From positions 1,184,001 through 1,248,000 of the forward strand of contig CM000435.1 in NCBI GenBank assembly GCA_000165345.1: 64,000 bases of DNA. The letters run 5' to 3'. Below the pieces are notes generated by a model that saw only the letters and a list, made by a program, of their open reading frames with translations, did not search any database and was not told the DNA's origin. Both the position numbers and the translations under genes were made by a program. Below are positions 12,104 through 57,879 of this stretch, piece by piece; positions within the stretch are counted from its first letter, which is position 1; each line of letters opens with the position of its first letter.

Positions 12104-12271
12104 TAATTAATATATAAAAGTTAAATTGGCGCCAACAATTCATACACGTTAATTTCAATAATTATAATATTTAAGTCGAATTAACAATAAGGCCCATTAG
12201 TTTTGCTCAGAGATTAAAGAATATACCAGGATCTAAAGATTTTATTAATATAATTCTATGAGAGGTGAATA

Positions 12272-12637
12272 ATGCTTAAAAAGTTAGTATCTGGAAGTGA
12301 AGAACAGCCTGCAAATAAGACTCTATATTGCAAGAACTTGAACGATAAAATCAACAAAAAAGATTTAAAGATTCTATTATTTGAACTCTTTATTCAATTT
12401 GGTTTGATTGATAAGATTACAATAAGGGGAGGAAGCCCATATAGAGGCCAAGCATTCATTTTGTTTCAAGATTTAAATTGTGCAATCAATGCAAAAAATA
12501 GCATTAATGGCATGAATGTATTAGGTAAACCTATACATATAGAATATGCAAAAGAAAACTCAATTTTGAATCCTGGACTAGCGGAGAAAAAGAGCTCGGG
12601 ATACATATTGGGACCAAAAATGCCGGACAATAAATAA
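12272..12637 (+). CDS. U1A/U2B''-type snRNP protein (single N-terminal RRM)
   Basis: TLYCKNLNDKINKKDLKILLFELFIQFG…RGQAFILFQD…PIHIEYAKENS aligns with U1A [28 protein letters not shown]…RGQAFVIFKE…MRIQYAKTDS. Confidence 0.7.
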   Translation: MLKKLVSGSEEQPANKTLYCKNLNDKINKKDLKILLFELFIQFGLIDKITIRGGSPYRGQAFILFQDLNCAINAKNSINGMNVLGKPIHIEYAKENSILNPGLAEKKSSGYILGPKMPDNK

Positions 12638-12732
12638 AACAGAATTAAGAATTAGAAATATTACGATAGAAGTACATAAAAACAAATAATTCTATTAAAA
12701 CGTAACTCTTCTCACACAGAATATTTTGGTAC

Positions 12733-13263
12733 TTATTGAACATTCTCTATCAAGTTCTCAGCGTTTTCTGTATCAATCTTTGCAATCTTTTGAGGTAATC
12801 CTTTTACTGAATCCAATTTGTCAGTAGAGCCAAAACCTCCCTCACCTCTAGTAGTTTTGTCCAATTCATCGACAATACTGAAGGTAATTTTTTCTCCATT
12901 AAAAGAAACGAGTTGGAAATATCTCTCGCCCTTTTTGACTTGGAAGTCAAAATCTTTAATATTATCAACTGGTGCCAAAAGTTCGCCTCTATACCCAGCA
13001 TCAATCAATCCAACAGAGTTGCATAGTCTAATTGGCGACTTTGAAATTGATGACCTTGCAAATAAAAGGTAACTAACTGGCTTGCCATCATCACTGTGAG
13101 CTGCAGCTTTAAATCCAAGCTTGATGTATGCAGTTTCTCCTGCTTTAATCACTTGGTCTTCAATTATGAAAAGGTCAAGTCCTGAATCACCATCGTGAAA
13201 AGTTTTATGGTTTTTGTAGAGCTCTTCAGCTATGGGGCATAAAGGTAACAAAGATAGATGCAT
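12733..13263 (-). CDS. DUT: dUTP pyrophosphatase (trimeric dUTPase)
   Basis: Canonical dUTPase motifs: DSGLDL, GLIDAGYRGE, and C-terminal RGEGGFGSTD. Confidence 0.85.
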   Translation of the reverse strand: MHLSLLPLCPIAEELYKNHKTFHDGDSGLDLFIIEDQVIKAGETAYIKLGFKAAAHSDDGKPVSYLLFARSSISKSPIRLCNSVGLIDAGYRGELLAPVDNIKDFDFQVKKGERYFQLVSFNGEKITFSIVDELDKTTRGEGGFGSTDKLDSVKGLPQKIAKIDTENAENLIENVQ

Positions 13264-13652
13264 AGTTAAATAAAATACAAAATAATGTTCTCTCCTTTAA
13301 CCAGTAATTACTTAAAATAGTAAATCTTTAAATTTAATTAGTATTCTATAATTTTTTTTTCCTAACGGAAGATACCTACCTTATTTATTTGTATTATTGT
13401 ACTTTACCACTATTTAATCAGTTAGAAAAAATGACGTTTAGGCGGGAAATATGTGGGATGTATACCGGCATAGAAAAAATATGAAGGTGAGGAGAAAAGT
13501 AGAAATATAAATCGTTAAGATTCAAAACAAGATCCTATAGTATGAAAACAAAAGCATAGCTCCTGTATTTGTGAGTATTGGTCAAGTTAGATTTTAAGAC
13601 CAATGATAATAGTGTTATTAGCTAAATCATCCCAACGGTTATAAGCGGAGCA

Positions 13653-15005
13653 TTACATGTCGTTCTTGATGTTTCGAATGAGAACCTTGGTAAGGCTTTC
13701 CTTTGAGTTGAAGTTTATTTCATTGCATTGAGATTCAACATATTTGGAAACAAGAATAACTGGGAGAGGATTTGGTGGGTCAACCTTCTTAATTGATTCC
13801 GTATCAATAGGTAATGGAGTCTCACCCTTGAGTTTTCTTTGTTCATTTTCAATTCTTCTCCTTTCTGCCATCTGTTTGATAAGGTATTGCTGTTTGTTAT
13901 AGTCCCTATATCCTTTGTAAAGTTTCTCTTGTTCTAATGACAAAACATCGATAGATTCTGCGAGATTTAATAGCGCCTTGTCATTGATATCAAGGGGTGT
14001 TTTTGTGTTGATAGATAATTCAGAATAGTCAATAGTGGATTGGAGTACATCTGAAGTTATCCAATCAAGTAGGAAAGCTTCAGAAAGAACTGGGTATTTA
14101 ATATAAATTGGGACTTCAACAAGAATATCCTCAAAGCTGGCATTCTTAAAAATGTGAAAGTTATCTTCGTCATCTTTGAGTTTGCTTGCATATTCAGAGT
14201 TCAAGGTAAAAGCTTTAAAAGCATTTTTCTTACCCTGAATAAGTAAGTCAGGATCAATGCTTAAAAGGATAGCATTTTTACTCTCAATGTTATTATAGTA
14301 AGATAATAATGTAGAAACAACTCCATAATCTTGGAAATCATCAAGACGTATAAGCTGGTACCATCCAAGCACAAAACAATCGGAACGTATTTCATGCATA
14401 AGCTCAACCATTGCAGCCTGATATTTGTCAACTTCTTCAACAAGACGCTCCTCTAAATCCAGTTTTTCTGATTTATCCAACTTTCCTCCACTATAGTTAG
14501 ACATGAGAGACGGAAGCAAATCTTCTCTTGTTGGAAGCTGGAAGGATGTTGTAATTTCTAGCTTATTGCCGTATTCCATACCTAGCAATTGACCTGTAGC
14601 ATTCATTTGTGAGTAGTTCTCTGTACAATGCTTAATAATTCTTAAAATGGCAGAAATATCAGCCTCTACTGAAGAAACTGTAGTTTTTGTTGATAAATGT
14701 TTATAGTGAGATGATCCTCCTGAATTTCCTATTGTATTTCCACTTGAAAAACTATAGTGCTGATGATGTCCAGTACCTGATGACAAAGAACCCTGTGAAA
14801 TCTGCTGTCCTCCTGACTGAGATTGAAAGTATCCAGATCCTTTTCCTCCTGAAATACCTGAAGAACCAGAAAGTTGCTGGACCTCCTCTTTTGAATCTTT
14901 ATCTTCAGTCTGTCTGCTAATTCCCCAACCTACATGTTTCGTTGTTTGAGTGGCTCCTTCCATTGGATTAGAACTCAACCCTATTAGGCCGTCTTTCCCG
15001 ATCAT
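13653..15005 (-). CDS. MPN-domain protein, eIF3h/eIF3f-like, with a Gly/Ser-rich N-terminal extension
   Basis: ILRIIKHCTE…ATGQLLGMEYGNKLEITTSFQLP…CFVLGWYQ is an MPN fold without a JAMM His-x-His motif. The N-terminal ~120 aa are G/S/Q-rich. Confidence 0.4.
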   Translation of the reverse strand: MIGKDGLIGLSSNPMEGATQTTKHVGWGISRQTEDKDSKEEVQQLSGSSGISGGKGSGYFQSQSGGQQISQGSLSSGTGHHQHYSFSSGNTIGNSGGSSHYKHLSTKTTVSSVEADISAILRIIKHCTENYSQMNATGQLLGMEYGNKLEITTSFQLPTREDLLPSLMSNYSGGKLDKSEKLDLEERLVEEVDKYQAAMVELMHEIRSDCFVLGWYQLIRLDDFQDYGVVSTLLSYYNNIESKNAILLSIDPDLLIQGKKNAFKAFTLNSEYASKLKDDEDNFHIFKNASFEDILVEVPIYIKYPVLSEAFLLDWITSDVLQSTIDYSELSINTKTPLDINDKALLNLAESIDVLSLEQEKLYKGYRDYNKQQYLIKQMAERRRIENEQRKLKGETPLPIDTESIKKVDPPNPLPVILVSKYVESQCNEINFNSKESLTKVLIRNIKNDM

Positions 15006-15161
15006 CTTGGCAAATTCTTGCTTCTGGAGCCGTAGTTCTAATTATTTATATCCTTTATTTTATACAAATATCAAGGTTTTAAAAGTTAAAACCTTTTTGT
15101 CAATTTAATATTTCTTTCCACTTTTTTCAGTCATATAGTCAATTAAAGCAATATTAGCCTT

Positions 15162-15179
15162 TTGGCGCCATGGCGCCAC
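15162..15179. promoter_or_regulatory. Paired E2F-type box, perfect 14-bp palindrome GGCGCCATGGCGCC, upstream of the MPN/eIF3-like gene
   Basis: TTGGCGCCATGGCGCCAC lies 160 bp upstream of the ATG at 15005. A TATACCGGC element follows at 15201-15209. Confidence 0.6.
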
Positions 15180-15337
15180 ATTTCGAGACGAGTATTTTTA
15201 TATACCGGCTAATTTACATGATCATTTGGAATTAGGGGGAAATGGCGAGTAAAGAAAATTGTAAAAAAAGCTATAATTAAGTAAAACTAAATAGAAAGCT
15301 TGAAACTGTCATATTAATGACTTAAAGGTATATAAGA

Positions 15338-16579
15338 CTAGGTATTAAATAGAATTGACTGTAGGCATGCGGGAAGATCAACTTCAATATTGCCGTACAA
15401 ATATTCGTTAAAAAAGCATCCGTTGGAGATCTGTTTATTTAGACTTAGGTTTTTATAAAGCTGATTTTTTGTAGAGATCCTCTTCAGTGTGAGATGAGAT
15501 GAATCTATCTGATTGAGAAAGTAGAGTGAAATTTGATTTAGCGTGACAAAGTCTTTATTGCATGATTGTTTTGTCATTTGAATTAGGTTAAAAATTTCGG
15601 ACTTAAGAGCCCACCAACTTTTATATCCTTTTTCTGAATTTGAGTTTACTTGTTCTAAGTAACAATTTGGGTGATATTGTTGGATAATATGGTTTGAAAT
15701 CGAGAAACATAGAGAAAAGTTGTCGATTATGTTAATTTCAATGACCCCATTTAATAATTTGTTTTTGCTTATAATGTTAAAAGTTTCGAGAACTTTACTA
15801 AAAATTGAGCTCAGGATTGCTTCCCTAATATAACAAGAAGAACAAGATTGTTTTCTTTTTTGAACGTTTTCATTTGGCTCTGAAACATCGCCTTCCTGAG
15901 TACAATTTGCAAGGGATATAATAAGATCTGACAGTACGGGACGTGATAGCCAAGTCAGAACATTATCATCCTTCCAATTACAGTTTATTAAAGTATTTAC
16001 AATTTCTCTGCAAATTTGGAACATTACTATACGAATATTGGAGAAATGTGAGTACTTTGTGATCATATCAAACATTGATAATATAAAGGACGGGAATAGA
16101 CTTTTCTTCTCATGCCATGATGCTTCATTGATGCTATTTTCGTAGATAAACTCTTTTGTTGCAAAATAATTTTGAGATTTTTGAGTACTCTCAATATTTT
16201 TATTGATAAATATTGAAATATTTTCTGGTCTACACATTTCAGTTATAGACTTAAATGTTCTTGTTAAAACCTCAAAATCATCCAAATCAATACAACCTGT
16301 TGAAATAGCCTCCCTTATCTCAAGTATATCTGGAATCTGATTAATTAGAGAATTAAAGTTATTTTCTTTATTATAATCAAAATCTATTAAAGAAAGTGAA
16401 CTCCTGGAATTAATGGCCCCTAGAATTCCAGACTTTATTTTCTCTTTGGTAACTTTCTTTTGGTCTTCATTCAAAAATTCATTTGAATCTTGTACTACTG
16501 AAGTCAGTATTGTAATAAAGTCCACTATAGAATCCTCATTTTCCTCAAATAAACTCAAATTATGACCAGTTACATCCAT
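15338..16579 (-). CDS. Hypothetical protein
   Basis: 413-codon ORF with an ATG start. E2F-like GGCGGG box and a TGCATG cluster about 110-150 bp upstream. No recognisable domain. Confidence 0.5.
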   Translation of the reverse strand: MDVTGHNLSLFEENEDSIVDFITILTSVVQDSNEFLNEDQKKVTKEKIKSGILGAINSRSSLSLIDFDYNKENNFNSLINQIPDILEIREAISTGCIDLDDFEVLTRTFKSITEMCRPENISIFINKNIESTQKSQNYFATKEFIYENSINEASWHEKKSLFPSFILSMFDMITKYSHFSNIRIVMFQICREIVNTLINCNWKDDNVLTWLSRPVLSDLIISLANCTQEGDVSEPNENVQKRKQSCSSCYIREAILSSIFSKVLETFNIISKNKLLNGVIEINIIDNFSLCFSISNHIIQQYHPNCYLEQVNSNSEKGYKSWWALKSEIFNLIQMTKQSCNKDFVTLNQISLYFLNQIDSSHLTLKRISTKNQLYKNLSLNKQISNGCFFNEYLYGNIEVDLPACLQSILFNT

Positions 16580-16690
16580 TTAGCTAAAGATATAACTTTC
16601 CAAGTAATTAATATAGATCAATAAAAATTTAGTTCTTTCAGTTTCATTTATATACATAAATTAATTAATATAAAAAAATCTGCCATATTT

Positions 16691-16730
16691 GGCGGGAATA
16701 TTGTGCATGTATACATGCATACATGCAAGC
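16691..16730. promoter_or_regulatory. GGCGGGAA box immediately followed by a TGCATG cluster (GTGCATGTATACATGCATACATGCAAGC)
   Basis: 110-150 bp upstream of the 15338..16579 gene start. Confidence 0.45.
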
Positions 16731-16736
16731 TTGTGG

Positions 16737-17609: not shown

Positions 17610-18027
17610 ATTATTTACTTTAATCCCAAATTTACTTATTCAAAATATTTTAAGTTTATATTACGTTTTAAATTTGTCTTAAATATTACATAGAACACAA
17701 TTTATCTTCAATTAAACATTGTTTGGAGGCCTTAGAAATGCTTTATGTTTGTGTGTGTATGAGTAAGTTACCTATTTATATTTCAAAAAAAAATTTCAAC
17801 CTATTGTTTAATATTTCAATTAAAGCCTAATTACCAGAAAAACTATTCTGATCTTAATCTATTCCAACATTCTGAATAACTAATGCAACATTATTCCAGA
17901 ATATATCTGATTTGCAAGCTAATCTCTCACTCTTTATTGTTATTTTATGCCCTATTTATTTAATTTAATTTTTTTTTATTTTAGTTTATTCTTGCTTGAA
18001 TTTCAAGATATTATTACTCCATAGTCC

Positions 18028-18060
18028 TATACCGGTACCGCTTCAGTCGATTTTGGCGCC
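18028..18060. promoter_or_regulatory. TATACCGGTACCG element plus a GGCGCC box in a divergent promoter
   Basis: TATACCGGTACCGCTTCAGTCGATTTTGGCGCC lies between the 17609 (-) and 18176 (+, bromodomain) starts. Confidence 0.5.
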
Positions 18061-21908: not shown

Positions 21909-21924
21909 GCCCGCCTAGGCGGGC
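21909..21924. promoter_or_regulatory. Perfect 16-bp palindrome GCCCGCCTAGGCGGGC: two head-to-head GGCGGG half-sites
   Basis: Located 290 bp upstream of the RBM39-like start (21617). Confidence 0.55.
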
Positions 21925-22534: not shown

Positions 22535-22873
22535 CCTTAAAGGAGAAAATTTTAAGTCTATTAATATTAATTATGTTATTTGCCCCTCTTAATACATTAC
22601 GTGTCTATCTGTCAAATCATAATTATTATCTAGAAAAATGATTCGTCAAGAATTTATTAAAAATATCTAATTTCTGAATTTAACCAATATATTGTTGCAA
22701 TCTTTGCAACTCAATAAGATAGTGATATCATCTCGTCTTATTTATATTTATAAATTTATCTCTAACTCCCACCATACTAATTAAAATCTAAATGTGTCCT
22801 TTATTACATAGATACAGTTTATTAAATTTGTATAATTGGCAAATTCACAAACAAATTCAACTAATTAGTCGAA

Positions 22874-24097: not shown

Positions 24098-24517
24098 TCT
24101 ATAAATACCATATATATATTACGTTATTAAGATTTTTCTTAAGAAATTAATAGTAATTCGCCGCATACCTTGCTTCAGACTATGAGAAACAAATGTAAAA
24201 ACTTAATCCTATCAATAAAATCTTACTAGAATAAGCCCCACTCAGGCCATAATACGATCTCTAATCCTACTAAGTTCGACTTAAATATTTTTCCTCATAT
24301 CTGGGTTTAATTATTGAATGCGCTTGTATTCGGCGCCATATCCGTTATTTTTCTTGTTATCAACTTTGCATGCATTTAAATATTGTAACAACAAGGCGGG
24401 AATTAAGATGAATTTAAAAATGGCAAGAAACGTATGCGAAGTTAGGGTAATAAAATCTAATGGAGAGAGCAGCAGAAATAAAAATATATAATTAGGAGAA
24501 ATGGAGTAATACTGGTT

Positions 24518-25924: not shown

Positions 25925-25944
25925 GGCGCCACATATGAGGCGCC
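25925..25944. promoter_or_regulatory. Paired GGCGCC boxes flanking CATATG (GGCGCCACATATGAGGCGCC)
   Basis: About 105 bp upstream of the ankyrin-methyltransferase ATG (25819). An additional TTTGGCGGTAACC at 26131-26143. Confidence 0.55.
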
Positions 25945-26579
25945 TCTAAATTTTTGATCAGGATTTGAAAAAAGTAGGGTAGCAAATTGGAATCTAATTT
26001 TTAAATTTTTAGGAAAAATAGAATTAATAAAAAGCTTCCTACCAAGTTTGAAACTTTAGCAAGTATTTAGGTAGTGCACTTAGTTATCTAAATATTAAAT
26101 AATTCCTTATTTACAATTTAAAATAACAGTTTTGGCGGTAACCAATCAGCATTATAGCTTTTTAATTCAGTTTAAAAACTAGTGAGGAATTGAATAGAAA
26201 AATAAATTCAATACAAATTAATAAAGACAATAGAGTATTTTGATCTATTATTTTTTATCAAAGATGTTGTATAGCCTATCAAGTCCATTATTTAGACAAT
26301 ATTTAAGTGTTGTAAAGTAAGTTGAGTTTGATTCACTGCTAAATTTGAGCTGTTGAGAAATTAAAATTTTCATCAACTATTCGTAACTTTTTTACTCTTA
26401 TAAATTAACTAGAAAATCAAACAAGCAGTTACAGACAGGAGGAGCTGTAAGTAACTCAAAAGCTGTCTCTGAAAGAGCTCAAGTTTATCCTTCTAGTACA
26501 GGAATATAATATGAACATTAATTCTTAGTTTAATTTCAAATTATTCTTAATACCTTATTTCGATTATTCTGATTATCTT

Positions 26580-28247: not shown

Positions 28248-29199
28248 TATTTAAAAACTTTTTTTTTCAAAGATTGCTTCTATTATTAACAGTGACTGTT
28301 GTGAATATATAGATTTAACTTAATAGGTTGAAGCTTATTATTTACCTTTCCTATTCAAAAATTACGTTAAAATTCTTAAGCAATAATCCTTAGTAGTTTC
28401 AGACTCCTCTTTTCCCATTTCTAAACACAAGCTTTTGGGATTTCATTCACAAGGAATAATGGATTTCTAGTTATTCTTAAAGCTAAAACCAGGCTCTATT
28501 TTATCTGATAAATAATAAATACATTACAAAATAAAACAAAGTAATTCAGGTATAAAAGGTTGACTAGGTTAAAATTTTTTTTTCCTGTGACTTCACAAGT
28601 CTGACAGTTTCTTTAGACTTCTTTTTATTTGTGCTTGGTTTAATTAAAATGCATTATATGAAAATCAAGAAATTCTAATCCGCACCCTTAATTTGGCTTC
28701 TTAATAAATTCTTTCACATACTCATTATTCAAAATTTTAAAAGTTACATATAAGTTTTTCCTGTTCTTCCTTGAGTAATAGCAGTATTTTTATATTTGTT
28801 TTTTCCCACTATTTAATGCTTTTACATGCTCGTATTTTAATAAACTTTAAAAAAATTTTATCGTGGAAAAAAAAAATACTTTGCTTTTATATCCCGGGTA
28901 TATTTTTGTGTATTTTCTTTGTGAATATTTTGCCGGAATATTATTTATGTTTTTAGTACCGGCATTTTCATAATTGCATGCAAACAATTCCCAAAAAGTA
29001 ACAAATTTTTGATGATATTATTTGGCGGGGGGCTTAGCAAATTAATGTGGGAATTAAAGCTAAAAAAAAAAAAATAAAAATAATAGAAATAAAGAATTGG
29101 AATTTAAAGTGAAAGAAATTATAAGGAAACTTATTATATCATGTATTTCTATAATGTGTACTAAGCAAAGTTGACAAATTCTTGTATTTTCTCCCTTTT

Positions 29200-30330: not shown

Positions 30331-30356
30331 GGCGCCAAATTAGCTTTAATACCGGT
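30331..30356. promoter_or_regulatory. GGCGCC box plus ATACCGGT element upstream of eIF2-alpha
   Basis: TTTGGCGCCAAATTAGCTTTAATACCGGT, 125-150 bp upstream of the eIF2-alpha ATG (30207). Confidence 0.5.
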
Positions 30357-32455: not shown

Positions 32456-32852
32456 CTTATAGAGGATTACAATAGGCTCTCCAGTTAATCAAAACAATCG
32501 TCTATGTGTGTTAATATTTACTAAAAGTCTCAAAACTATCCTTTGATCAACTTACAATTATTATTTTATTATTTTATTTTCCTATTATTATTTACTCCAT
32601 AGTGGGGCAAAGGCGGTACCTTTCCTAAATATTACATAAAAACATTTAAAAAAATTGAATATTGTTTTAGATCAAATAATTAAAAGAAAATCTCAAACTA
32701 AAACTTCATAAATTGAAATAAACAAGTTCTATAAAATTGTTAAATCTTCAAAACATATTCCCTTCCCTTTGTCACATTAATCTAAAATATTCATTACTTT
32801 TCATTTGACTATAATTAAAATACTATTAGGCGGGAACATCCCAAATTCTGAA

Positions 32853-34230: not shown

Positions 34231-34249
34231 GGCGCCACAATGCGGCGCC
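34231..34249. promoter_or_regulatory. Paired E2F-type boxes (TTTGGCGCCACAATGCGGCGCCAAA) in a divergent promoter
   Basis: Between the Hint-protein start (33983, -) and the RabGGT-alpha start (34367, +). Followed by TTGCCGGTAC at 34251-34260. Confidence 0.6.
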
Positions 34250-34366
34250 AAATTGCCGGTACTTGAAAAGATCAAAAAGAATTTTTGAAAAGAAGTCAAG
34301 TGGAAAAAAATTACAAATAAATAAATAACTAGAATTGTAAGCAAAATTTATACAAACCTAGATTAA

Positions 34367-37069: not shown

Positions 37070-37098
37070 GGCGCCAAAATGGGTCCACATGTGGCGCC
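37070..37098. promoter_or_regulatory. Paired GGCGCC boxes (GGCGCCAAAATGGGTCCACATGTGGCGCC) in a divergent promoter
   Basis: Between the RLP24 start (36755, -) and the Slt11-like start (37217, +). Confidence 0.6.
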
Positions 37099-39922: not shown

Positions 39923-40446
39923 CTTAAAATTTAAAACTATCCATATAAAATTTGAATTACTATATTAATTTTCTATTATTTGATTTTGGGTGCAAAATTT
40001 ATATTGATTACCGAGCACACTAAATTTTCAATACACTATTCGGGAAAAGCTAACAAGCCTAAATTCACACTTTAACAAATCATTAGATTTTAATCTCAAT
40101 AGTAACATTATAGAGAAAATTTGTTCAATGTAGTACTATTTGGTTTATTAATCAATAATTGGTTTTGTAGAATTTAGTGTAATGTTAACAATTTTAGATT
40201 AATTTTAGAATAAAAAATGAAATGGAGACTATTAGACAAATAAATAAACCAGAAAGATTTAAACTCTAATATAAAGAGGGCTTCAACGAATTCTACTTCC
40301 TAATTTATAATTATTTTTTTTCAAAACTTAATTTGGACTTGAATATTAAAAATGCACCTTTTTGGCGGCATATGTGGGCAGAAAAGCATGTATATCTTGA
40401 TTTTTTTTTAATATGGAAATAAGTGTAAAAATAATTAAAGAATACC

Positions 40447-42093: not shown

Positions 42094-42555
42094 TTTTTTT
42101 TAAAAGCTCTTTTATATTAATATTATTTAAAATATTTTCATTTAACTAGAGATCTTAATTCGCTTAGTTCATATAGCATGGTACTTTACGTTACGTATCT
42201 ACGTGTTATACCAATATTGTTCATAACTAACAGTTACCTGCAAAATAATCTTAATTAAAAGAAATTTAAATTGAAAATATTTAAGAAAAACAAATATTAT
42301 ATCTAAAATCACTTTTAAAAAGATAATAGTAAGTCGATATTCACTTTTATCGCAACCTAATACAAACATTAAACTCCACTTCAAAATGATAAGTTCTAAA
42401 AATGTAGGCTATATATATTAATGCTTTAAATTTCAAAAATCCTATGTAATATAGTTGAAAATCTGAATAGATTTGGATAAGATCTTTTATCAAAACTTGA
42501 ATCAATTTTTCAAATGCTTATTTTTGAACTGACTACAATAGTGCATGCAAGGCAG

Positions 42556-42584
42556 CGCCAAATCACACGAACGCTGTTGGCGCC
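42556..42584. promoter_or_regulatory. Paired E2F-type boxes (AGCGCCAAA … TTGGCGCC)
   Basis: In the 1-kb gap between 42093 (- start) and the small ORF at 42777. Confidence 0.5.
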
Positions 42585-42776
42585 TATTTGAAACAAATTT
42601 GTGTGGTTTTTGATATAAATGTAAGATGAAAAAGAAAATGTATTTTTTTTCATTTTTTTTCGCAAGTTAAGGTAGGATTATCTTTTGTAATATTTTTAAA
42701 TTACTTAGGTTGATAGAATGTTTCTCTTTTTTGTAACTTGACTAACTATTAGAGCATAAACTCTTTTAAAGTAGAA

Positions 42777-43147: not shown

Positions 43148-43444
43148 TTAAGAATCTGAAATCTTTTGCCTCTTATATACTTGTTGGTCTTTCTCAAAGT
43201 TTTGAGTCAAATCTTCATATCCCTCTCCTACCATTCCAATACAATCGCCACGTAAAACAAGAGACTCCATACTTACAGTTTCTACTTTGTTCAGATCTTT
43301 ATTATATATCTTTTCAAAGCAATTTTGTAATACTATATTTGTTAGCTGATCGAACCCTACCAAATTCCCAACATATACTTTGTTATCAACTGTCAATACG
43401 CTCACAGTCTTGTTGATAAACTGTTCTAATGTAGAACTATTCAT
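43148..43444 (-). CDS. LSM8: Sm-like protein LSm8
   Basis: LEQFINKTVSVLTVDNKVYVGNLVGFDQLTNIVLQNCFEKIY…LVLRGDCIGMVGE aligns with human LSm8 LENYINRTVAVITSDGRMIVGTLKGFDQTINLILDESHERVF…IVRGDNVAVIGE. Confidence 0.8.
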   Translation of the reverse strand: MNSSTLEQFINKTVSVLTVDNKVYVGNLVGFDQLTNIVLQNCFEKIYNKDLNKVETVSMESLVLRGDCIGMVGEGYEDLTQNFEKDQQVYKRQKISDS

Positions 43445-44070
43445 CTGCTAATTCTAAAAGTTGGTAAAAAGTATGCAAATAATTAATAAGGACCAATATA
43501 AATATATATATTTATATAGATCAGTTTGCCAATGTATTTTGGAATCCTAATTTTTTTTAAACCTTGAAAGTAACTGGAATAATTGAAACAGTCAGTTCAA
43601 AAATAGAAAATCCTAAGGCATTGTCTAGCCACGTATTTAAGATGAATTCTTATTTAATATATTGTTAACAAATAAATTTCCTTGAAAAATAATTTTAAAA
43701 TAATTTTTCTGGTCTCATTCTACCGACATCAATGGACCCTCATCTTGATACCGGTTTTTGACTATGAGTGCATTTTGGCGGGCTTCGGGAATAATTTATT
43801 TATTAAGCTGATGAAAAAATTAGTATACAAATAATTTAGATTACTGTGAGTTTGAAAGAAAATTTTCGGTATTATTTGTTCTCACTGGAAAGAAGATACA
43901 ATCTCTTGAAGGTATAAAGTAAAAGTCCCTTATATTCGTATTAATAATAAGTGGCTCATAAAGCCATTAATAATAAATTTAAAAATACGAAATTTATGTG
44001 AGAATATAAGTAATAAACCTTTAAAGTGAGGGAGAAAGAGGTAGGAGTTTATCATATTGAGTACAAAACC

Positions 44071-46091: not shown

Positions 46092-47267
46092 CTATTCATT
46101 TCTGTTAATTTTAATAGAGGAAATAGTTTTATATACCTGTTCTTCATTACTTATGACTCCTATTTCTTGAATTCCAGATAATTCATTAAGCTGAATTTCA
46201 GAGATATATCCAGGACCAAAGCTTTTTTTTGAGTATGCTTTCACAAGACTACTAGAATTAAATGTTAATTTCTGTTTTTCACTTTTATTTCCGTATTTTG
46301 TATTGATAAAGGTTACATGTGGGTTATAATCCTGTACTATAGAATCTTTTAGATTTTGTGATTTGTTACTAATCTCTGAATTAGAATCAGATATTGTTAA
46401 ATTAACCCCATATTTTATCAGTATCTCACAAAGTTTAATCCAAAGTCGTTTAATCATTGCAATTTTATGATTTTCAGATATTTTTGCATATACAACTCTA
46501 GAATTATAAGGAGATCCAAAGTACCCTAATCCATGTAACTCCACAGGAAATCCCTTTTCAGAAGATGATTCTTCCAAAATGTCTCGAAACTCTTGAGTTT
46601 CTTTTAATTCGAATAATGCATTCTCACACTGTAAAAGTTCTTGAGGTGTTTCTGCTCGAACTAACCCCAAAGTTATGTGCAATTTCTTCTCACCAATAAA
46701 AAATGTCGGTTTAATTTCTCCGTACTCTGCAGATTCATTCACCACTTTTTTTAAAGCTTTGAATTCCTTGAATAGATTCAAAGAGTGCTGATTAAATGAT
46801 AAACTGAAAAAGTGTGTTGGAGTTTGATTTACTTTGATATTTTGATCTTTTTCCTCCAAATAATCCACAAATTCCAAATGATCAAAATTTGAGCCAAGCT
46901 TAGTAGCTTCTTCAGATTCTTCGCTTTCAGAATTTGAGAAATTACTATCTTCCTTAATAACTTGCACTTCGCTTGTAGGCTTAAATGAAAGTCTTTTCAA
47001 CAAACTTGCTGGAATCTGACTCAAGTCCACATACTCACTCACCATCCTCCCCCTTTCTTTATCCCCTGACCTCTGAAAGATGTTGTCTCGTATTTCAACA
47101 GCTTTTACTGGCGGGAATAAAATCATCTCATCTAACTTTTCGATTTCATTTGAATGAAAATGACTACCCTGGGGGGAATTATGATCATTATAAGATCCCT
47201 CTGCTCCCGTAACTCCGCTTTCTTCGTTCAGTTGTTTTTTAGATTCCTTAATTTTTTTTGAAGCCAT
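46092..47267 (-). CDS. 2H-phosphoesterase-fold protein (ASCC1/AKAP7/LigT-like)
   Basis: Two H-x-T/S-x motifs at the right spacing: KKLHITLGLV and NPHVTFINTKYG. Confidence 0.45.
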   Translation of the reverse strand: MASKKIKESKKQLNEESGVTGAEGSYNDHNSPQGSHFHSNEIEKLDEMILFPPVKAVEIRDNIFQRSGDKERGRMVSEYVDLSQIPASLLKRLSFKPTSEVQVIKEDSNFSNSESEESEEATKLGSNFDHLEFVDYLEEKDQNIKVNQTPTHFFSLSFNQHSLNLFKEFKALKKVVNESAEYGEIKPTFFIGEKKLHITLGLVRAETPQELLQCENALFELKETQEFRDILEESSSEKGFPVELHGLGYFGSPYNSRVVYAKISENHKIAMIKRLWIKLCEILIKYGVNLTISDSNSEISNKSQNLKDSIVQDYNPHVTFINTKYGNKSEKQKLTFNSSSLVKAYSKKSFGPGYISEIQLNELSGIQEIGVISNEEQVYKTISSIKINRNE

Positions 47268-47340: not shown

Positions 47341-47358
47341 GCGCCAACTAATGGCGCC
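47341..47358. promoter_or_regulatory. Paired E2F-type boxes (GCGCCAACTAATGGCGCC) in a divergent promoter
   Basis: Between the 2H-phosphoesterase start (47267, -) and the CtIP-like start (47623, +). CGGTACCG at 47281-47288. Confidence 0.55.
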
Positions 47359-48514: not shown

Positions 48515-50411
48515 TTATCCGGCATTAGTAAACGGTAAATCTTTTCCATTAGGTATTAAGTTAGAACCAGAATCGGGATCAGCTTGCAGTACAAAAACGG
48601 CCCAATCTCTTAAGATGTGGTTTATTTCTTTCAAGAAGGGTGACTTACATTGTAAAGGAGTACAATTTGTAGAATGCACCGCTACAACGAGAGAGCATGC
48701 TGGCTCTTTAAAAAATTGTGCCTTTTTCTCCACGTACTGGAGAAGTGGAGCAGTTGTAGCTTGATTATTACCTATAAGTTGCCCAAGATTTCCAGAAATA
48801 ATTATTTCTTCTTCTGTTTCTTTACCAAATACATTACCATAGTTTCCCATATATACCCCCGATAAAGGACCAAATTCCAATTCTTTTTCTAAACCAGGCT
48901 CAAACATTTGGGTCGCTAATGTTCCTCCGAATGCCATTTCTTGGAGTCTTCTAAGCATTATATTGTTGTTATTACCGATATCATCCCATTTCCTTTTACC
49001 CACTCCAATCTCAGATTCATCATCTTTTAATCCTTTGGAATCTCCACAAATTCCTTTATCTTTGATACAATTCTTTGAACTGTTTTCAAATTCGTTAGTT
49101 AAAAACTCAACATTATTTTCCATATCAATTCCCATACCTCTCATTTGAACAGCTTGGATGTCTGCTTGACTTTTCTTCACATAACGAGAAGAGGAAGTGA
49201 ACAAATTGTTTGAAATAGTGTCTTGACCTCTTGAACTAGTGTCATTAAAGTTGATTGGAAACTCTTGATCATTCTTATTTTCAGAAATTTCGTTTAAAGT
49301 TTCAAAGATATCTTCAACTACTTCATCTGACACCACATCATTCTCATCAAATGTTCCAGAAATAATTTTGTATGTCTCATCTTCAGGAATTTCTTCTCCA
49401 AACTCATATTTTTCGAGTGCTTTAGGAGGAAAAATAACGTTGAAGCCCTTTGGACACCAAATTCTGCCTCTTGTATAATTAACAATATTACAAATCATAG
49501 TTACTCTTTGATAAAAAGCAAAGTTTGAGCCAATATATGAAGGTTGGGAATTATCTGGACAAATTGCTATTGGTGGAATAACCTGAAATGCTTTGCATCC
49601 TTCAATTGAATTAACAAATCCTGCTGGACAAATTCCTCCATCCAATTCCTATAAAAAAAAAATTCAAATGAATTATCATCAATAATTTTATCTCCTTAAA
49701 CTTACAGAAAATGGAATAACACGATACCCTTCGCATGCCCATGATATAATATCTGGAGTAACTTCTCCTGTATTTGAATTAGTTTCTGATTCGTACTTAA
49801 GTCTAAGTTTCATTCCTGCTGGACATGCTAAAGAAGGTCCTACTTCTCTTTTTTCCTGGCAAATTCCTATTTTTAATAAATAAAAAATATATTATATTTA
49901 ATATAAGTAAATTTATTACTGTAAGCCAAAAAGAATATTTTGCAAAATTACCTGGATATAAAGATGACTGTTTAGGAATAGTGCCTGACGCTGAGCTAAC
50001 AAATCTTCCCAGATCACCAAAACACTCTGTTCTTGGTCCCAAAGAAACCTCAGCCATACAAAGTGGCCCCCAAGGAGTCCAGCCTTTTGGGCATCTGACC
50101 TGAACAGGTCTAATTAATTCAGGTACCCTATTATCTACTCCTTTTTCTTGCTTTCTAGTTAAAATGGGTTCAAATTCAGGTTTTTTTTCCGTCAATTTAT
50201 GAAGCTCAAGAATCTCCGTAATATTTGCATCATATCTGGGAAACTTGTCTTTCCAAGGAAGGGGCTTGTAATCTGACTTTAATTTTTGAGGTCCATACAT
50301 TTCAGCTGGGTTTGTAGATCCTGAAAAGTCATGCCTTTCTTGTGCCACATTTCTTTGCGATAATACATATCTAAAACATAAAACAAGCAGTAATAATATC
50401 AAAAAATTCAT
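48515..50411 (-). CDS. Secreted cysteine-rich (COWP-like) protein, spliced; the middle exon is not resolved
   Basis: The track ORFs 49803..50411 and 48515..49645 belong to one gene. The first has an ATG and a signal peptide MNFLILLLLVLCFRYVLS. The second starts at a TTG artefact. Exon 1 ends at 49952: CCAG followed by GTAATT at plus 49946-49951. A perfect 57-nt intron (GTAAGT…TTTTTTTTTATAG, 49648..49704) joins …PFS to ELDGGICPAGFVNSIEGC. Between them the 49705..49866 segment has stops in all frames as one exon. The best model uses acceptor CTTAG at 49803, giving exon 49705..49802 (DLKYESETNSNTGEVTPDIISWACEGYRVIPFS). Motifs RCPKGWTPWGPLC, ICPAGF…C and WCPKGF. Confidence 0.45.
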
Positions 50412-50760
50412 TTTATAACTAGAAAATGAGTATCATCTGCTCAGTTCAATTCATATTTCTTGAACTTTCATTAAAAAGAAAAACCTTATTGCATGCTTTT
50501 TTATAATATTACCAAATTACCCGCCAAAGCGATTTTTTGATGATACCCCAAAAAGATCGATAAAGAAAAAAAAATAGGACAAATTATTACGTGAAAAGTG
50601 GGAAAAACTTTGATACACATATTTTTGTGTATGAGCCCTAATAGTGAATCAGATATTAGGTAGCAGAGAGAGAGAGAGAGAAGCAAAATATCTTGGAGTT
50701 GGAACAATGTTTTGAAGTTAATGGGATCAGAAAGAAGAACAAAGGTATTTCCGGTTAAAT

Positions 50761-53433: not shown

Positions 53434-53744
53434 AAACAATCTCTTATATTAGGTTATTCTTCATTTGCACTCTGATAAAAAAAAATTAATATCTTTCAAT
53501 CTATTCCTAAGATAATAACTCTATCTTTTCATTCAAATACACAATATATTCTCGTCACGAAGATACGTATTTCTTTGTTTTTTCTTTATCTAAATAGCAT
53601 TAAACTTATATGAAGGATAACATAATTCTGTGTTATTCAATAGTAATAAATCAAAGCCTGAAAGTAATTACATCAATAAAACTCGGGTATTAAATTTAAG
53701 ACCCTTTCCCGATCAAGGATGAAATATCTAGTATTTACTTTCTT

Positions 53745-55316
53745 TCAAGTAGGAACAAATCCAACTAAGTTTACTATTTTTAATTTATTACTTGAATCAA
53801 ATGATGCATTTAGGCAAATATTTCCCTGAATAAAACGAACATATAATAATAAATTATCGATAGTGAAATTAGGGTTAGAACATTCAGAAGATCCTTCATT
53901 GTTTTCAATAGACAGTATTCTCTCAGCTACTTGCCTGGTTAAACATACATCCTCCAATAGTAATTCATCCCACGGCTTTGGTAAAGGTATTGGATAATGA
54001 ATACCTAGTTCAAGGAGCATTTCATCACTATTTACACTCCTTCTAGAGTTAATTACAACAGCTTCAACCCAAATGACTAATTCATCTTCATTTTGTGGGT
54101 GATCAATTTCATTTAAACTTTCAGAATTAGTTTGTAATACTGATGGAGCTTCCGATAAATTAAATTCATGATTATTATTTATATCAGGATAATAGCTATT
54201 TAAACCCTCGAAATTTTCATCTTGATATTCTAAATCCTCTCTAATTTCAATATCAGCATAATTTTCAAAGTCAAAATAACCTTGTAAATCGTCTACAATA
54301 CCGACATCCAATATTTCATTTTCCTTTTCTTCAATGGACTTAGGAAAAATCTCAATAACTGAATTAGAATCAGAATTAGAGTTATCTGGTTCTATAAAGC
54401 ATTCATCTTTGATTTCTAATTTCTCTAATAATAACTCGTCTTCAATCAAAGAGTTGCTTAAAAAAGAATCTGAATTAACTTGATTCAGTGCTTTTTGGTT
54501 TGAAATAACTTTATAGTTCTCTTCAAATATCTGATTATCTTTTTTTTCCTTTAAGCCTGAATTTGTAATCACAAAGTTTGAGTATGACCTGATATCTAAG
54601 ATCCCCTCTGGGGTTTTAATTGGTTTCTTAACTAAGTTTTCTGACAAAATAGAGGAGCTGGAATTGCTTGTAGACTTTTCTCCTATGTTTTCATTGAGCT
54701 TTTTAACTCGATCATGAACACTTTGTTCAGCATCTTTATGCATGATAAAAGTAAGCATTCCAGGTAATAAAAGCATGACTCCTCTTTTGATTTCAGGCTC
54801 ACCTGACAAAAGAACCAATATATGGGCGTTGTTATCTCGCTGATTTGAATCTCCATTCTTTTCAATATGTTCTGTATATTTGCACCAAAAGCTTATGAAT
54901 TCATCTAATTCAGGCATGTACCTATATTCCATTGCAGAGCATACATTTGTGCCATCTGTTAAAATGAGTTTCATCATCCTATTCTTAGAAGGAGTAGTTA
55001 TTGATACTTGCTCCATCTTAGATAAATCTGAGTTAAAATAGAATCGATTTCTAGACTTAGCCTTGGAAACATCCTCAGCCTCTATTAATTGCAATAAATG
55101 AACTCCTTTTAAGTTAATTTTATGCAAAGAATGAATATCCAAAGGTAGACTTCCTTTCTTAATAATTTTTGATAGGTCCACTGAAAGCAAAAGTTTTAAA
55201 AGTTTGTCAGAATAATCATCATAATCCTCTTTAAATGGTTCTAATAGCTTTTCAACCTCCTCACAAACTTGAATTTGCAAATCCTTCAAAATGTGTTCAA
55301 TCAAATTTTCACTCAT
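53745..55316 (-). CDS. RMI1/TDRD3-like DUF1767 + OB-fold protein
   Basis: NRMMKLILTDGTNVCSAMEYRYMPELDEF…KRGVMLLLPG aligns with human RMI1 [31 protein letters not shown]…LGVLLLKP. The track start 55328 is TTG; the first ATG is at 55316 (MSENLIEHIL). Confidence 0.45.
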   Translation of the reverse strand: MSENLIEHILKDLQIQVCEEVEKLLEPFKEDYDDYSDKLLKLLLSVDLSKIIKKGSLPLDIHSLHKINLKGVHLLQLIEAEDVSKAKSRNRFYFNSDLSKMEQVSITTPSKNRMMKLILTDGTNVCSAMEYRYMPELDEFISFWCKYTEHIEKNGDSNQRDNNAHILVLLSGEPEIKRGVMLLLPGMLTFIMHKDAEQSVHDRVKKLNENIGEKSTSNSSSSILSENLVKKPIKTPEGILDIRSYSNFVITNSGLKEKKDNQIFEENYKVISNQKALNQVNSDSFLSNSLIEDELLLEKLEIKDECFIEPDNSNSDSNSVIEIFPKSIEEKENEILDVGIVDDLQGYFDFENYADIEIREDLEYQDENFEGLNSYYPDINNNHEFNLSEAPSVLQTNSESLNEIDHPQNEDELVIWVEAVVINSRRSVNSDEMLLELGIHYPIPLPKPWDELLLEDVCLTRQVAERILSIENNEGSSECSNPNFTIDNLLLYVRFIQGNICLNASFDSSNKLKIVNLVGFVPT

Positions 55317-55520
55317 CAATCTATTCAATGTTCAAATCTCATTTAACAGGAAGAAAATGTATTTTGCACATTATAAGTTCATTTGAGCTACTCACTATTA
55401 TTTCAAACTAATTATTTTTTTCTTTTACATTTGGATCAAATATTGTTTGGTACCGTACATAATTTGGCGGGAATTGCAATTCCAAAATAATCAACAAAAA
55501 AATAAAAGAAAGTTAAGATC

Positions 55521-57266
55521 ATGTTTAAAAAGCTTAATATAAAAGAAAAGGGCTGTGATGATGAATCTTTACTCTCTGACAGGTTTCATATTCAGAAACT
55601 TCTTTTAGATTTTGATAGGGAAGCATCCATTCATTTAGATGATGACAATACCGAAGAACTGCTTATTCAACTTTCTAAGATTTATTCAGAATATGTTATT
55701 CCCTTAACTGCAGTTACAATAAATGAAGACCTTGTAAAAAGTTGGAGTTTGTTTAATATTTATTTAAAATTAGAATTGTGTGGTGGCTGTATTGAACACT
55801 TCATATTAGCATTTCAAATGATTTCTAGTATTATTACCACAAATCCAAATTCTGTATATTTATTATTTACTCCATTAAATGAAAGGACTGATATATGCCC
55901 AATAAAGTACATATGTTTGATGTTGAGTAATTCTTTTTATGGCTTAGATCCCAAATCACCAGAATTTGAAAATTTGTTAACTAGTATTAGTTTTTTACAA
56001 ACTGATTATATTGGAAACGGAATTGAAGATGAATTTATTAGAAATTTGGAAAATGGCCAAAAAGATAATTTGAAAGCTATTAAGAATGAAGAAATTGAAA
56101 ATAAGAAATTCAAATTAGAAGAATTGGCAGTAAATTTAATTATTGAATCTCTAGATTTACTTGAGCTAATCCTAAAGTACATAGATGATTTATCATTGAT
56201 GTATGAAGCAGATTTTAAGCAAACCGAAAATTTTATTATTTGCATTAAAGCTTTAATAGATACTTACTCCCCTATATTTCAAACAATTCTCTCATCTAAA
56301 ATGATGTTAAAATTACATGGGAAGGAAACTGATAAGATTAAGGAAACACGAATTATTGTTTTGAGGATTTTTGAGAGGCTGGCTTTGGTTTTATTTAATA
56401 CAGGCCTACTTCCTTACTTTCTTGAATCCCTTAATAAAGAAATAGTTAGTAATCAAGGTACTGTTTTTGAAAGTTTGATGGACATTCTATCTCCAGATTT
56501 TCCGAATTGGTACACATTTAAGTACAAAGGGCTGGAAGAATTAAAAAATTTCATTTTTTCTTTACAACTTCAATTTACTGGATTCTTGTTTTTAAAAACC
56601 ATATGTAACACTGTAGAAGAGCCATCTTCCGCCGTTAATATGCTCTTAAATGTAAGAAAGTATCATATACCTTTTGATGAACTCCCTGACTTTATCTCAC
56701 AATCCAATTATTGGTTTAGCGACATTAAAGACAAAATAAACTTTGATAAAGAAAACACTATTTTTGGAAATTTCTCGGAATATGGGAATTCTTTACCAAA
56801 ATATGTAAACAGTATTTTCTCCAACTTATTCTATAGGGTGGCTGCTGTAGCGTTTCATAATGGGCTCAAACTCCAACAGAATATGATCGATTTTTCTCAA
56901 ATCACTGAAACATTTCATGAAGGTATTATTGGAAGTGAAACTCTGGCTCTAAAAAGACTTTACTCTCTTAAGACTGATCTTTTTATTGTTAATATCCAAA
57001 TTATTACTTTTATAATTTCTTCAATTGTTTCAATTTCTGCAGAAGTTGTTTCCGATGATGAATTTATAAAGTCAAATCCTACAGCAGAAGTTATTTCTAT
57101 TCTTCACTTGTTTTTAGTATGGATCTGCGAGTTCGTATTTGATTACAAATCTAAAATTCCAATATTCTATCATATTCTTGAGGAAATTAATATTATAAAA
57201 ATTAGGCTTCCTATACTATATAATGCCTTTAATAATAAAGATTCTACAAATGATAATAAGATATAG
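55521..57266 (+). CDS. Hypothetical protein
   Basis: 581-codon ORF with an ATG start, predicted helical. Divergent from the 53745 gene, with an E2F box (55466) between them. Confidence 0.5.
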   Translation: MFKKLNIKEKGCDDESLLSDRFHIQKLLLDFDREASIHLDDDNTEELLIQLSKIYSEYVIPLTAVTINEDLVKSWSLFNIYLKLELCGGCIEHFILAFQMISSIITTNPNSVYLLFTPLNERTDICPIKYICLMLSNSFYGLDPKSPEFENLLTSISFLQTDYIGNGIEDEFIRNLENGQKDNLKAIKNEEIENKKFKLEELAVNLIIESLDLLELILKYIDDLSLMYEADFKQTENFIICIKALIDTYSPIFQTILSSKMMLKLHGKETDKIKETRIIVLRIFERLALVLFNTGLLPYFLESLNKEIVSNQGTVFESLMDILSPDFPNWYTFKYKGLEELKNFIFSLQLQFTGFLFLKTICNTVEEPSSAVNMLLNVRKYHIPFDELPDFISQSNYWFSDIKDKINFDKENTIFGNFSEYGNSLPKYVNSIFSNLFYRVAAVAFHNGLKLQQNMIDFSQITETFHEGIIGSETLALKRLYSLKTDLFIVNIQIITFIISSIVSISAEVVSDDEFIKSNPTAEVISILHLFLVWICEFVFDYKSKIPIFYHILEEINIIKIRLPILYNAFNNKDSTNDNKI

Positions 57267-57879
57267 TATATTTGAGCTAAATCTAGACAACTATTGATTC
57301 ATGTGACACAAATGTGAATAGTTATTATTCTCAACAGGGATTAATCTTTCTAGCTCCCCTATTTCTTAAATTACTATTCTATTTAGGCTACACACTAAAT
57401 ATATTATTTCATATTTAAAATCAAACAAGCCAAACTGAATTGAAAAGTCATTTAGTTTCGTAGTCAAAGTAATTTTTTTAATTAAATAGACAAATCTTTA
57501 GGGTGATAGCTTAGAGAAACTTGTGACATAACTCCCCTTATATCTTGCTTTGGACTTGTTTAATTTTACTTGGAGGCGGAGATAGGCTCATTCTTCAGAA
57601 AAATGGCGCGCGCTTGAAAATGTTTTTTTTTGTGTTGTATTGATTAAAATACTTTTTGTTATATATAATAATTAAAAAAATAGAGGAGTTTAAAAACCAC
57701 AACATAGATAAATTTAATAGATTTAGAGAAACAAAAGTAGCTAATCAACTCATAATTGATGTGTCTAAGGTTGAAAACAAAGGCAAAAAATCCGCAGAAT
57801 TAACACTGAAGAATTTATGACAAAAATTAATTAATTTAGGTGGGAAAAGAAAATAGTGGCAGGAGCCTTAAGATCAAAG

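Follow-up and report, generated by a model that had tools for sequence, protein, structure and literature searches.

E2F-like GGCG[C/G][C/G] boxes in the 5' spacers of a 64-kb region of Cryptosporidium parvum chromosome 7

We have analyzed a 64-kb stretch of DNA from Cryptosporidium parvum chromosome 7 (the window, with all coordinates counted from its first nucleotide), in which short GGCGCC and GGCGGG boxes lie in the 5' spacers of most genes. The boxes are enriched between genes, specific to gene 5' ends and conserved among Cryptosporidium species, and we consider them with good confidence to be the published E2F-like upstream motif of C. parvum, TTT-GGCG[C/G][C/G]-AAA, serving as conserved promoter elements. 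The central finding is already known for this organism, namely the two forms of the motif, its very high prevalence and its use in bidirectional promoters, and the details that we add (pair spacing, footprint and companion motif) are modest extensions obtained from a single 64-kb region together with the orthologous loci. Cryptosporidium ranks among the main causes of diarrhoea in children, and little is understood of how it regulates its genes; no other promoter element of the parasite is believed to be used as widely as the E2F-like box, and the E2F/DP family is missing from other apicomplexans. The window holds no new principle. What it provides is a quantified local picture, with a box at about four fifths of the genes and none at a minority that includes the gene for oocyst wall protein 5 (COWP5), and the conserved pairs with their TACCGG companion represent concrete, testable promoter designs.

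Enrichment and position of the boxes

We defined a strict box as GGCGSS or SSCGCC, that is, GGCG[C/G][C/G] and its complement. GGCGCC occurs 14 times in the window and GGCGGG 11 times, against 0.68 and 1.28 occurrences expected from shuffles. There are 27 distinct strict sites, 26 of them intergenic and one coding (odds ratio of 96, Fisher p = 8e-17), and first-order Markov resampling of the spacers gives 1.28 sites against the 26 observed. When 5' spacers were compared with coding sequence, the top k-mer not made purely of A/T was TGGCGCC(A), with 21 occurrences in the former and 0 in the latter (p = 1.5e-15). An earlier note on this DNA, made from the sequence alone, had suggested testing the boxes against shuffled and coding backgrounds, and in these figures they stand out from both; the equal density in coding sequence or 3' spacers that it named as the opposite case is not what we found.

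The probability that base composition, CpG content, chance or a dispersed repeat accounts for the boxes is negligible. In an AT-rich genome, G/C hexamers are rare everywhere, and the scarcity of boxes in coding sequence is not significant alone (1 observed against 2.9 expected, P = 0.19). However, the spacers, which make up 21% of the window, are lower in GC than coding sequence (27% against 33%) and yet hold 26 of the 27 sites, dinucleotide shuffles give 0.7-1.3 sites, and the sites form invariant islands in otherwise diverged spacers. Other G/C hexamers are unbiased, as a comparison of all 36 G/C-only hexamer classes limited the bias to the two box forms and their one-base shifts. A chance or composition artefact is rejected by the shuffles, the spacer-only Markov resampling and this hexamer table, and a dispersed repeat is rejected as well, with no repeat family carrying the boxes. 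The signal is intergenic enrichment and not coding depletion; coding avoidance was rejected as a signal on the figures given above, and across all the species compared below, the depletion of boxes in coding sequence is mild. The sole strict coding box, a GGCGGG at 47110 in the minus-strand gene at 46092-47267, contradicts the earlier statement that boxes were seen nowhere inside coding sequence. It is probably a coding coincidence, and we left it out of the tally of promoter elements.

The sites are flanked by T-rich sequence 5' and A-rich sequence 3' of the core, which gives the consensus TTT-GGCGSS-AA(A). The GGCG core is invariant at every site, with a T at position -1 in 21 of the 28 half sites and mostly A at +1 and +2. 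A strand-orientation bias of the asymmetric boxes toward the downstream gene was considered and rejected, the counts being 7 versus 2 in the window, mixed elsewhere and not significant.

With corrected gene models, strict boxes are present in 20 of the 24 spacers with a gene 5' end, corresponding to 27 of 33 gene 5' ends, and in none of the eight convergent 3'/3' spacers. The earlier note had estimated about 22 of some 30 promoters. Enrichment in spacers with a 5' end is about 20-fold. Boxes lie at a median of 153 bp from the nearest start codon that faces them, with half of the boxes at 100-180 bp; others lie up to 779 bp from the start codon, and some are found 21-43 bp past the stop codon of the upstream gene.

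The boxes at 32829 and 12128 follow the upstream stop codon by 21-27 bp in tandem arrays, a position in which the promoter element of the next gene would probably be inside the 3' untranslated region of its neighbor. Stop-adjacent boxes agree with the E2F motifs reported between genes of polycistronic transcripts (Xiao et al. 2025).

Conservation and arrangement of the sites

Syntenic loci were compared from C. muris, a C. andersoni-like sequence, C. ryanae, a bovis-like species, C. felis, C. canis (two assemblies), C. ubiquitum and the species of Logan run SRR31860986. These loci jointly cover the window from about 3 to 57 kb, and gene order is identical in all of them. Almost all C. parvum boxes have an equivalent in the orthologous spacers of C. 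ubiquitum, C. canis, C. felis and the Logan species, about as far from the start codon. Invariant columns make up 111 of 138 (80%) in the boxes against 26% of the remaining spacer columns, in alignments of two to four species each, and as judged from these alignments the boxes are under purifying selection as discrete elements. Their conservation persists despite the difference in GC content between C. parvum (32%) and C. felis or C. canis (42-51%). GGCGCC and GGCGGG are exchanged at orthologous sites of the promoters eIF2a/555aa, STL11/L24e, 555aa/AnkMT and SAE2/AKAP7 (genes as in Table 1, AnkMT being the ankyrin-methyltransferase), so we can consider both forms a single functional class. The loci with 42-51% GC have it in coding sequence and spacers alike (L009, L012 and L014 from C. 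canis, L007 and L013 from C. felis, and L010).

Box density varies with the lineage. On samples of about 6-7 kb of spacer per species, we counted 2.0 strict boxes per kb of spacer in C. parvum and 2.1 in C. ubiquitum, 0.6-0.7 in C. ryanae and the bovis-like species (L006, L008), and 0.15-0.44 in the gastric C. muris (L005) and the C. andersoni-like sequence (L015). Some orthologous sites in these four are degenerate (TTGGCGCTAA, TTTGCGGGAA). Boxes in the distant clades are still above expectation, and TGGCGCCA or its sub-words are among the most enriched G/C-containing spacer k-mers. As read from the sequences, the drop in density may be a lineage difference in the use of the E2F regulon.

Convergent spacers of 12 sequences contain no box in 32 spacers against 7.9 expected (P = 3.6e-4, although orthologous spacers are not independent samples). 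This result bears on an action at the nucleic-acid level, in which the palindromes would form hairpins or cruciforms, or the boxes would be 3'-end or termination signals of the upstream gene in tandem arrays. GGCGCC is self-complementary, two of the pairs are perfect palindromes of 14-16 bp, and the several stop-adjacent boxes would suit a 3'-end signal. Nevertheless, single boxes are the majority, the empty convergent spacers reject a termination signal, and hairpins or cruciforms are rejected by uncompensated one-sided changes from GGCGCC to GGCGGG in STL11/L24e (C. felis), 555aa/AnkMT (C. canis) and SAE2/AKAP7, as well as by the unconserved palindrome center. Overall, we regard this explanation as very improbable.

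The window contains five strict pairs with boxes no more than 25 bp apart, at spacings of 8, 8, 13, 14 and 23 bp. The earlier note had flagged pairing as a feature to be quantified, and the clustering exceeds all three nulls used, which were a uniform one (1.3 pairs expected, P = 0.007), one with the per-spacer counts fixed (0.7 expected, P < 5e-5) and one restricted to a 150-bp promoter window (1.8 expected, P = 0.011). Spacings are also kept across species, both for strict pairs (8 bp at 15164 and 21910, 13 bp at 34231, 14-15 bp at 25925 and 23 bp at 37070) and for sites with a half box (20-23 bp at 42556/42579 and 12-14 bp at 47341/47353). Among the palindromes proposed earlier, GGCGCCATGGCGCC (15164-15177) and GCCCGCCTAGGCGGGC (21909-21924) are indeed perfect, whereas GGCGCCACATATGAGGCGCC (25925-25944) is not, because its spacer ACATATGA lacks self-complementarity. 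At its center, the palindrome at 15164 has AT in C. parvum and has TT in C. canis, and therefore what is conserved is two boxes at a fixed distance and not the palindrome. Paired or inverted sites are a feature of several classical E2F promoters, adenovirus E2, DHFR and E2F1 among them. Boxes separated by 8, 13-14 or 20-23 bp are probably bound by two heterodimers together, and such binding would be cooperative.

A second motif, (T)ATACCGG(T), was found in the neighborhood of the boxes. It occurs 14 times in the window against 2.84 expected, with 11 of the 14 intergenic, and sites of this type are located at 8374, 9812, 13463, 15203, 18030, 28957, 30350, 34256 and 43749, together with a GTACCG at 55450. 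Six of the nine intergenic TACCGG loci are 12-31 bp from an E2F box (P = 4.5e-4 for lying within 35 bp), mostly on the side that faces away from the nearest gene, and TACCGG(T) is invariant beside the boxes in alignments with C. canis, C. felis and C. ubiquitum. The motif is absent from the 25 motifs of Oberstaller 2013 and from the AP2 motifs of Oberstaller 2014. TACCGG(T) near the boxes probably binds a partner factor. Another element, TGCATGCA, has six intergenic occurrences and one coding, in the same spacers as the boxes and sometimes adjacent to them.

We tentatively propose, as a possibility that we hold with less than even confidence, that these elements form composite modules of fixed geometry. 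Such modules would consist of two E2F boxes 8, 13-14 or 20-23 bp apart, often with TACCGG(T) 12-31 bp away and sometimes with TGCATGCA or CACAC, and their layout would be constant across the intestinal species through a genome-wide GC shift, with this class of promoter much denser in the C. parvum/C. ubiquitum lineage than in the gastric C. muris and C. andersoni. Such an organization, if correct, would imply cooperative higher-order binding of E2F/DP, a partner factor for TACCGG and a lineage-specific growth of the E2F regulon.

Four promoters are box-free, namely 1127-1575, 8197-8898, 9676-10213 (COWP5 and its divergent neighbor) and 22535-22873, and they contain no GGCG, CGCC, GCGC or CGCG 4-mer at all. 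The block of box-free promoters before COWP5 explains why the interval described earlier starts at 12128. Three of the four could be compared with the GC-rich C. canis, where the absence of a box is telling because the higher GC makes chance matches likelier. The COWP5/258-aa (amino acid) promoter and the spacer upstream of the D-Tyr deacylase gene are also box-free there, and the third, 258-aa/1624-aa, has a single GGCGGC. The promoters at 1127-1575 and 8197-8898 have TGCATGCA (1232 and 8342/8346, respectively) and a G-box (1460 and 8313), and TACCGG is present in two box-free promoters (8374, 9812). All this suggests that box-free promoters are a separate class, probably stage specific.

Candidate binding factors and published context

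Boxes of this kind were reportedly noted earlier on chromosome 6, by Bankier in 2003. The forms TTTGGCGCCAAA and TTTGGCGGGAA, which the earlier note likened to the E2F-like motif of Cryptosporidium, are motifs 3 and 4 of Oberstaller 2013, so that the likeness was right as a sequence class. Table 1 of that study gives motif 3 as DTTGSCGCCH and motif 4 as TTTGGCGGGAAV, calling them E2F-like, and the window sites and their flank frequencies match one or the other. Upstream regions of 114 and 47 expression clusters were enriched in these two motifs, and clusters with the motif peak at every time point (Oberstaller 2013). Genome-wide, the motif was found upstream of 161 of 200 gene clusters and listed among those without AP2 binding (Oberstaller 2014), and multiple copies in some upstream regions have been described (Mullapudi 2007). 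In sporozoites, E2F1/E2F6-type motifs dominate the peaks of ATAC-seq (assay for transposase-accessible chromatin with sequencing), more than half of which are annotated as bidirectional promoters (Xiao et al. 2025). The boxes studied here agree with the motif of Oberstaller 2013 in organism, the two forms, upstream location, prevalence (161/200 clusters, 27/33 genes here) and occurrence in bidirectional promoters and tandem-gene positions, and we see no essential difference from the published motif. In the literature examined, we did not find cross-species pair spacing, footprinting through a GC shift or the companion TACCGG(T).

We infer what binds the boxes, whether it activates or represses, and whether it does so cooperatively. 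E2F/DP winged-helix heterodimers would bind each box in a region that others found to be nucleosome depleted, the closest facing start codon being about 150 bp away (median). Bound boxes would then permit or drive transcription on one side, or on both in divergent promoters, and may serve most of the housekeeping-type genes here (27/33). C. parvum has two E2F/DP pairs, which other apicomplexans lack, and no Rb homologue (Oberstaller 2013); the genes given in the literature are cgd1_1560 and cgd6_1430 for E2F and cgd7_3650 and cgd8_1850 for DP. None of the 30 window genes (of 33) that were scanned against Pfam codes for an E2F or DP domain.

Animal and plant E2F/DP sites (TTTSSCGC; in Arabidopsis, TTTGGCGGGAAA or TTTCCCGCC) share with the boxes the 12-bp site, the symmetric G/C core, the T/A-rich flanks and a location near the gene start in either orientation. 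They differ in that the boxes are found at about 80% of the genes, beyond a G1/S set, and in that no Rb-family partner has been reported. ApiAP2 motifs (TGCATGCA, the G-box and CACACA) are likewise short, conserved and located in compact apicomplexan promoters, but the box has a distinct sequence, is not bound by the tested C. parvum AP2 domains, and is missing from the promoters at 1127-1575 and 8197-8898 that carry TGCATGCA and G-box elements.

Several points weigh against the boxes being E2F/DP-bound promoter elements. Although the box-bearing genes include those for dUTPase, SSRP1, a CtIP/SAE2-like protein and RMI1, they also include eIF2-alpha, eIF3h, L24e, LSM and RRM proteins, and 27 of 33 genes is too broad a set for a cell-cycle-specific label. 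The targets (translation factors, a ribosomal protein, RNA-binding and DNA-repair genes) do not look like a cell-cycle set and no Rb-type pocket protein has been reported for the genus (Oberstaller 2013), and therefore the regulatory logic would differ from that of textbook E2F. Our literature search returned no experiment on E2F/DP binding and no later functional study, and according to a 2025 review, most such components are without experimental validation. The boxes far from a start codon or next to a stop codon would be promoter elements by position alone, and in C. ryanae, the bovis-like species, C. muris and the C. andersoni-like sequence the density of strict boxes in spacers, per kb, is 3-13 times lower.

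Part of this would suit functional boxes bound by a factor other than E2F/DP (a zinc-finger, a Myb/SANT or another AP2 protein), with a coincidental resemblance to E2F sites. In its favor are the lack of validation noted in the 2025 review and the presence of the motif ahead of about 80% of the genes, whatever their function, a breadth that a classical E2F regulon does not have, and Oberstaller 2013 cautions that the presence of a motif is no proof of factor binding. On the other hand, TTTGGCG[C/G][C/G]AAA agrees with an E2F/DP site along some 12 bp, T- and A-rich flanks included, and Cryptosporidium, the sole apicomplexan genus that keeps E2F/DP, is also the one in which the motif is over-represented. 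Tested C. parvum AP2 domains bind TGCAT, CACACA and the G-box instead, as determined on protein-binding microarrays. We consider another factor unlikely, if the foremost of the alternatives.

A different idea is that E2F/DP-bound boxes act as a general promoter-defining, open-chromatin or boundary element and not as an on/off switch, with stage specificity coming from other motifs. The boxes are found at 27 of 33 genes regardless of function, with chromatin and translation represented as well as DNA repair and RNA binding, and in conserved composite modules with TACCGG, TGCATGCA and CACAC; E2F motifs dominate the sporozoite ATAC-seq peaks and occur between the genes of polycistrons, clusters with the motif peak at all times, and no Rb homologue has been reported. 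Against it, the E2F and DP transcripts are themselves stage biased, with an early asexual peak. This is a quite realistic possibility, if still a minority one in our judgment, and it refines the best explanation, E2F/DP-bound promoter elements, more than it competes with it.

Gene models and individual sites

The window has about 32% GC overall and tightly packed, intron-poor eukaryotic genes, among them those for dUTPase, eIF3h, a bromodomain protein, D-Tyr-tRNA deacylase, eIF2-alpha, SSRP1, a Hint-domain protein, prenyltransferase alpha and L24e. The earlier attribution to Cryptosporidium holds, as three proteins of the window have identical C. parvum Iowa II/ATCC entries (for example, EAK90472, which is COWP5 at 10214-12103, and EAK90480), and Cryptosporidium species are on top of the SSRP1 homologue ranking. 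The DNA has 99.98% identity to a Logan contig versus 97.6% to GCA_001593475.1, and the locus tag of a C. hominis ortholog, CHM_7g5260, points to chromosome 7. The window is C. parvum chromosome 7.

Before promoters were counted, the gene map based on open reading frames (ORFs) was corrected at two loci using orthologous annotations (Table 1). The LSM gene is annotated in C. ubiquitum and C. felis, and in the C. canis assembly it is uncalled, yet found by tblastn. The gene at 48515-50411 has a short intron with the signals GTAAGT...TTTTTTTTTATAG, and the apparently box-free spacer at 49499-49802 is no promoter because it lies inside this gene. In the long spacers, ARAGORN and Rfam found no RNA genes.

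The strict positions listed in the earlier note are present, although 32828 and 57604 were each one base off. Its sites at 26134 (GGCGGT) and at 42556 and 47341 (GCGCCAA half boxes) are degenerate, and those at 40364 and 57605 are GGCGGC and GGCGCG, respectively.

Table 1. Boxes and corrected gene models in the window, with the state of orthologous sites (a dot marks sites without strand; SRR31860986 stands for the species of that Logan run)
Position	Strand	Feature	Context	Orthologous sites
12128-12133	.	GGCGCC, ttGGCGCCaa	141 bp 5' of RRM gene ATG (12272); 27 bp past COWP5 stop	GGCGCC also in C. canis ortholog spacer
13441-13446	+	GGCGGG (ttaGGCGGGaaa)	180 bp 5' of dUTPase ATG; TACCGG next at 13463	
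15164-15177	.	GGCGCC pair, 8 bp apart, perfect palindrome GGCGCCATGGCGCC	about 165 bp 5' of eIF3h ATG	C. canis (GGCGCCTTGGCGCC): both boxes and 8-bp spacing kept, central dinucleotide changed
16691-16696	+	GGCGGG (tttGGCGGGaat)	114 bp 5' of 413-aa gene ATG	kept in C. canis
18055-18060	.	GGCGCC (ttttGGCGCCaac)	divergent bromodomain/290-aa promoter; TACCGGTACCG at 18030-18040	box and GGTACCGG element both invariant in C. canis
21909-21924	.	inverted CCCGCC/GGCGGG, 8 bp apart, palindrome GCCCGCCTAGGCGGGC	about 300 bp 5' of RRM gene ATG (21617)	pair invariant in C. canis and SRR31860986
24332-24400	.	GGCGCC (24332) and GGCGGG (24395), 63 bp apart	5' of 407-aa gene; TGCATGCA between at 24367	24332 GGCGCC and ATGCATGCA kept in three species; GGCGCC also in C. 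ryanae and bovis-like species
25925-25944	.	GGCGCC pair, 14 bp apart	108 and 122 bp 5' of ankyrin-methyltransferase ATG	-123/-109 (C. canis), -122/-107 (SRR31860986), -127/-113 (C. felis)
26134-26139	+	degenerate GGCGGT beside CCAAT element (ttttGGCGGTAACCAATCA)	weak site, function uncertain	
29024-29029	+	GGCGGG (tttGGCGGGggg)	779 bp 5' of 555-aa gene ATG; 173 bp past eIF2-alpha stop; TGCATGCA at 28975, TACCGG at 28957	GGCGCC in C. canis and SRR31860986
30331-30336	.	full consensus tttGGCGCCaaa	126 bp 5' of eIF2-alpha ATG; TACCGGT at 30350	TTGGCGCCAAAGAC invariant in four species; GGCGCCAAA box also in C. ryanae and bovis-like species
32829-32834	+	GGCGGG	376 bp 5' of SSRP1 ATG; 21 bp past Hint-gene stop	post-stop position kept in C. 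canis, C. felis and SRR31860986
34231-34249	.	GGCGCC pair, 13 bp apart	divergent prenyltransferase-alpha/Hint promoter; CCGGTAC at 34256	pair, 13-bp spacing and flanking AGTACCGG invariant in C. canis and C. felis
37070-37098	.	GGCGCC pair, 23 bp apart	divergent L24e/STL11 promoter	23-bp spacing kept in C. canis, C. ubiquitum and C. felis; one C. felis member is GGCGGG
40364-40369	+	GGCGGC variant (tttttGGCGGCat)	444 bp 5' of 664-aa gene ATG	CCCGCC in C. ubiquitum (pair 13 bp apart) and in C. canis
42556-42584	.	half box GCGCCAAA (42556-42563) and strict GGCGCC (42579-42584), 23 bp apart	5' of 548-aa gene; TGCATGCA at 42542	half box is strict box in C. canis and C. felis (spacing 21 and 20 bp); composite module at 42542-42620, AACCACAC-AATTTG ... 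GGCGCC ... TGTGTG ... TGGCG(C/G) ... TGCATGCA, with layout kept in four species
43148-43444	-	LSM gene, 98 aa	inside apparent 2-kb spacer	
43777-43782	+	GGCGGG (ttttGGCGGGct)	divergent 657-aa/LSM promoter; TACCGGT at 43749	CCCGCC-AAATGCA...GTCA...ACCGG-AT at fixed spacing in four species
47110-47115	+	GGCGGG, sole strict coding box	about 152 nt into AKAP7-like gene; CCCGCC on sense strand	box in C. canis, none in C. ubiquitum or C. felis
47341-47358	.	half box GCGCCAAC (47341) and strict GGCGCC (47353)	divergent SAE2/CtIP-like/AKAP7-like promoter	two strict boxes 13-14 bp apart in C. canis and C. felis
48515-49498 and 49803-50411	-	exons of one spliced gene		584 aa in C. ubiquitum
50520-50525	-	GGCGGG (ctttGGCGGGtaa on minus strand)	divergent WD40/584-aa promoter	TTTGGCGGG invariant in C. 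ubiquitum and C. canis; conserved GCATGCAAT near
55466-55471	+	GGCGGG (atttGGCGGGaatt)	204-bp divergent RMI1/581-aa promoter; GGTACCG at 55449-55455 (GTACCG at 55450)	box at equal offset in C. ubiquitum, C. canis and C. felis
57605-57612	+	GGCGCGCG variant (aaaaatGGCGCGCGctt)	272 bp 5' of long ORF starting at 57880	

The divergent WD40/584-aa promoter also contains a (GA)8 run at 50666-50681, which fits a published family of GAGA-like upstream motifs. Last, the STL11-like gene model of C. felis (L007 4843-5884 and L013 19345-20386) codes for 286 aa, against 185-186 aa elsewhere, and spans the divergent promoter, taking in the E2F pair TTTGGCGGGAAG and TTTGGCGCCATG, 23 bp apart. This annotation is likely over-extended.

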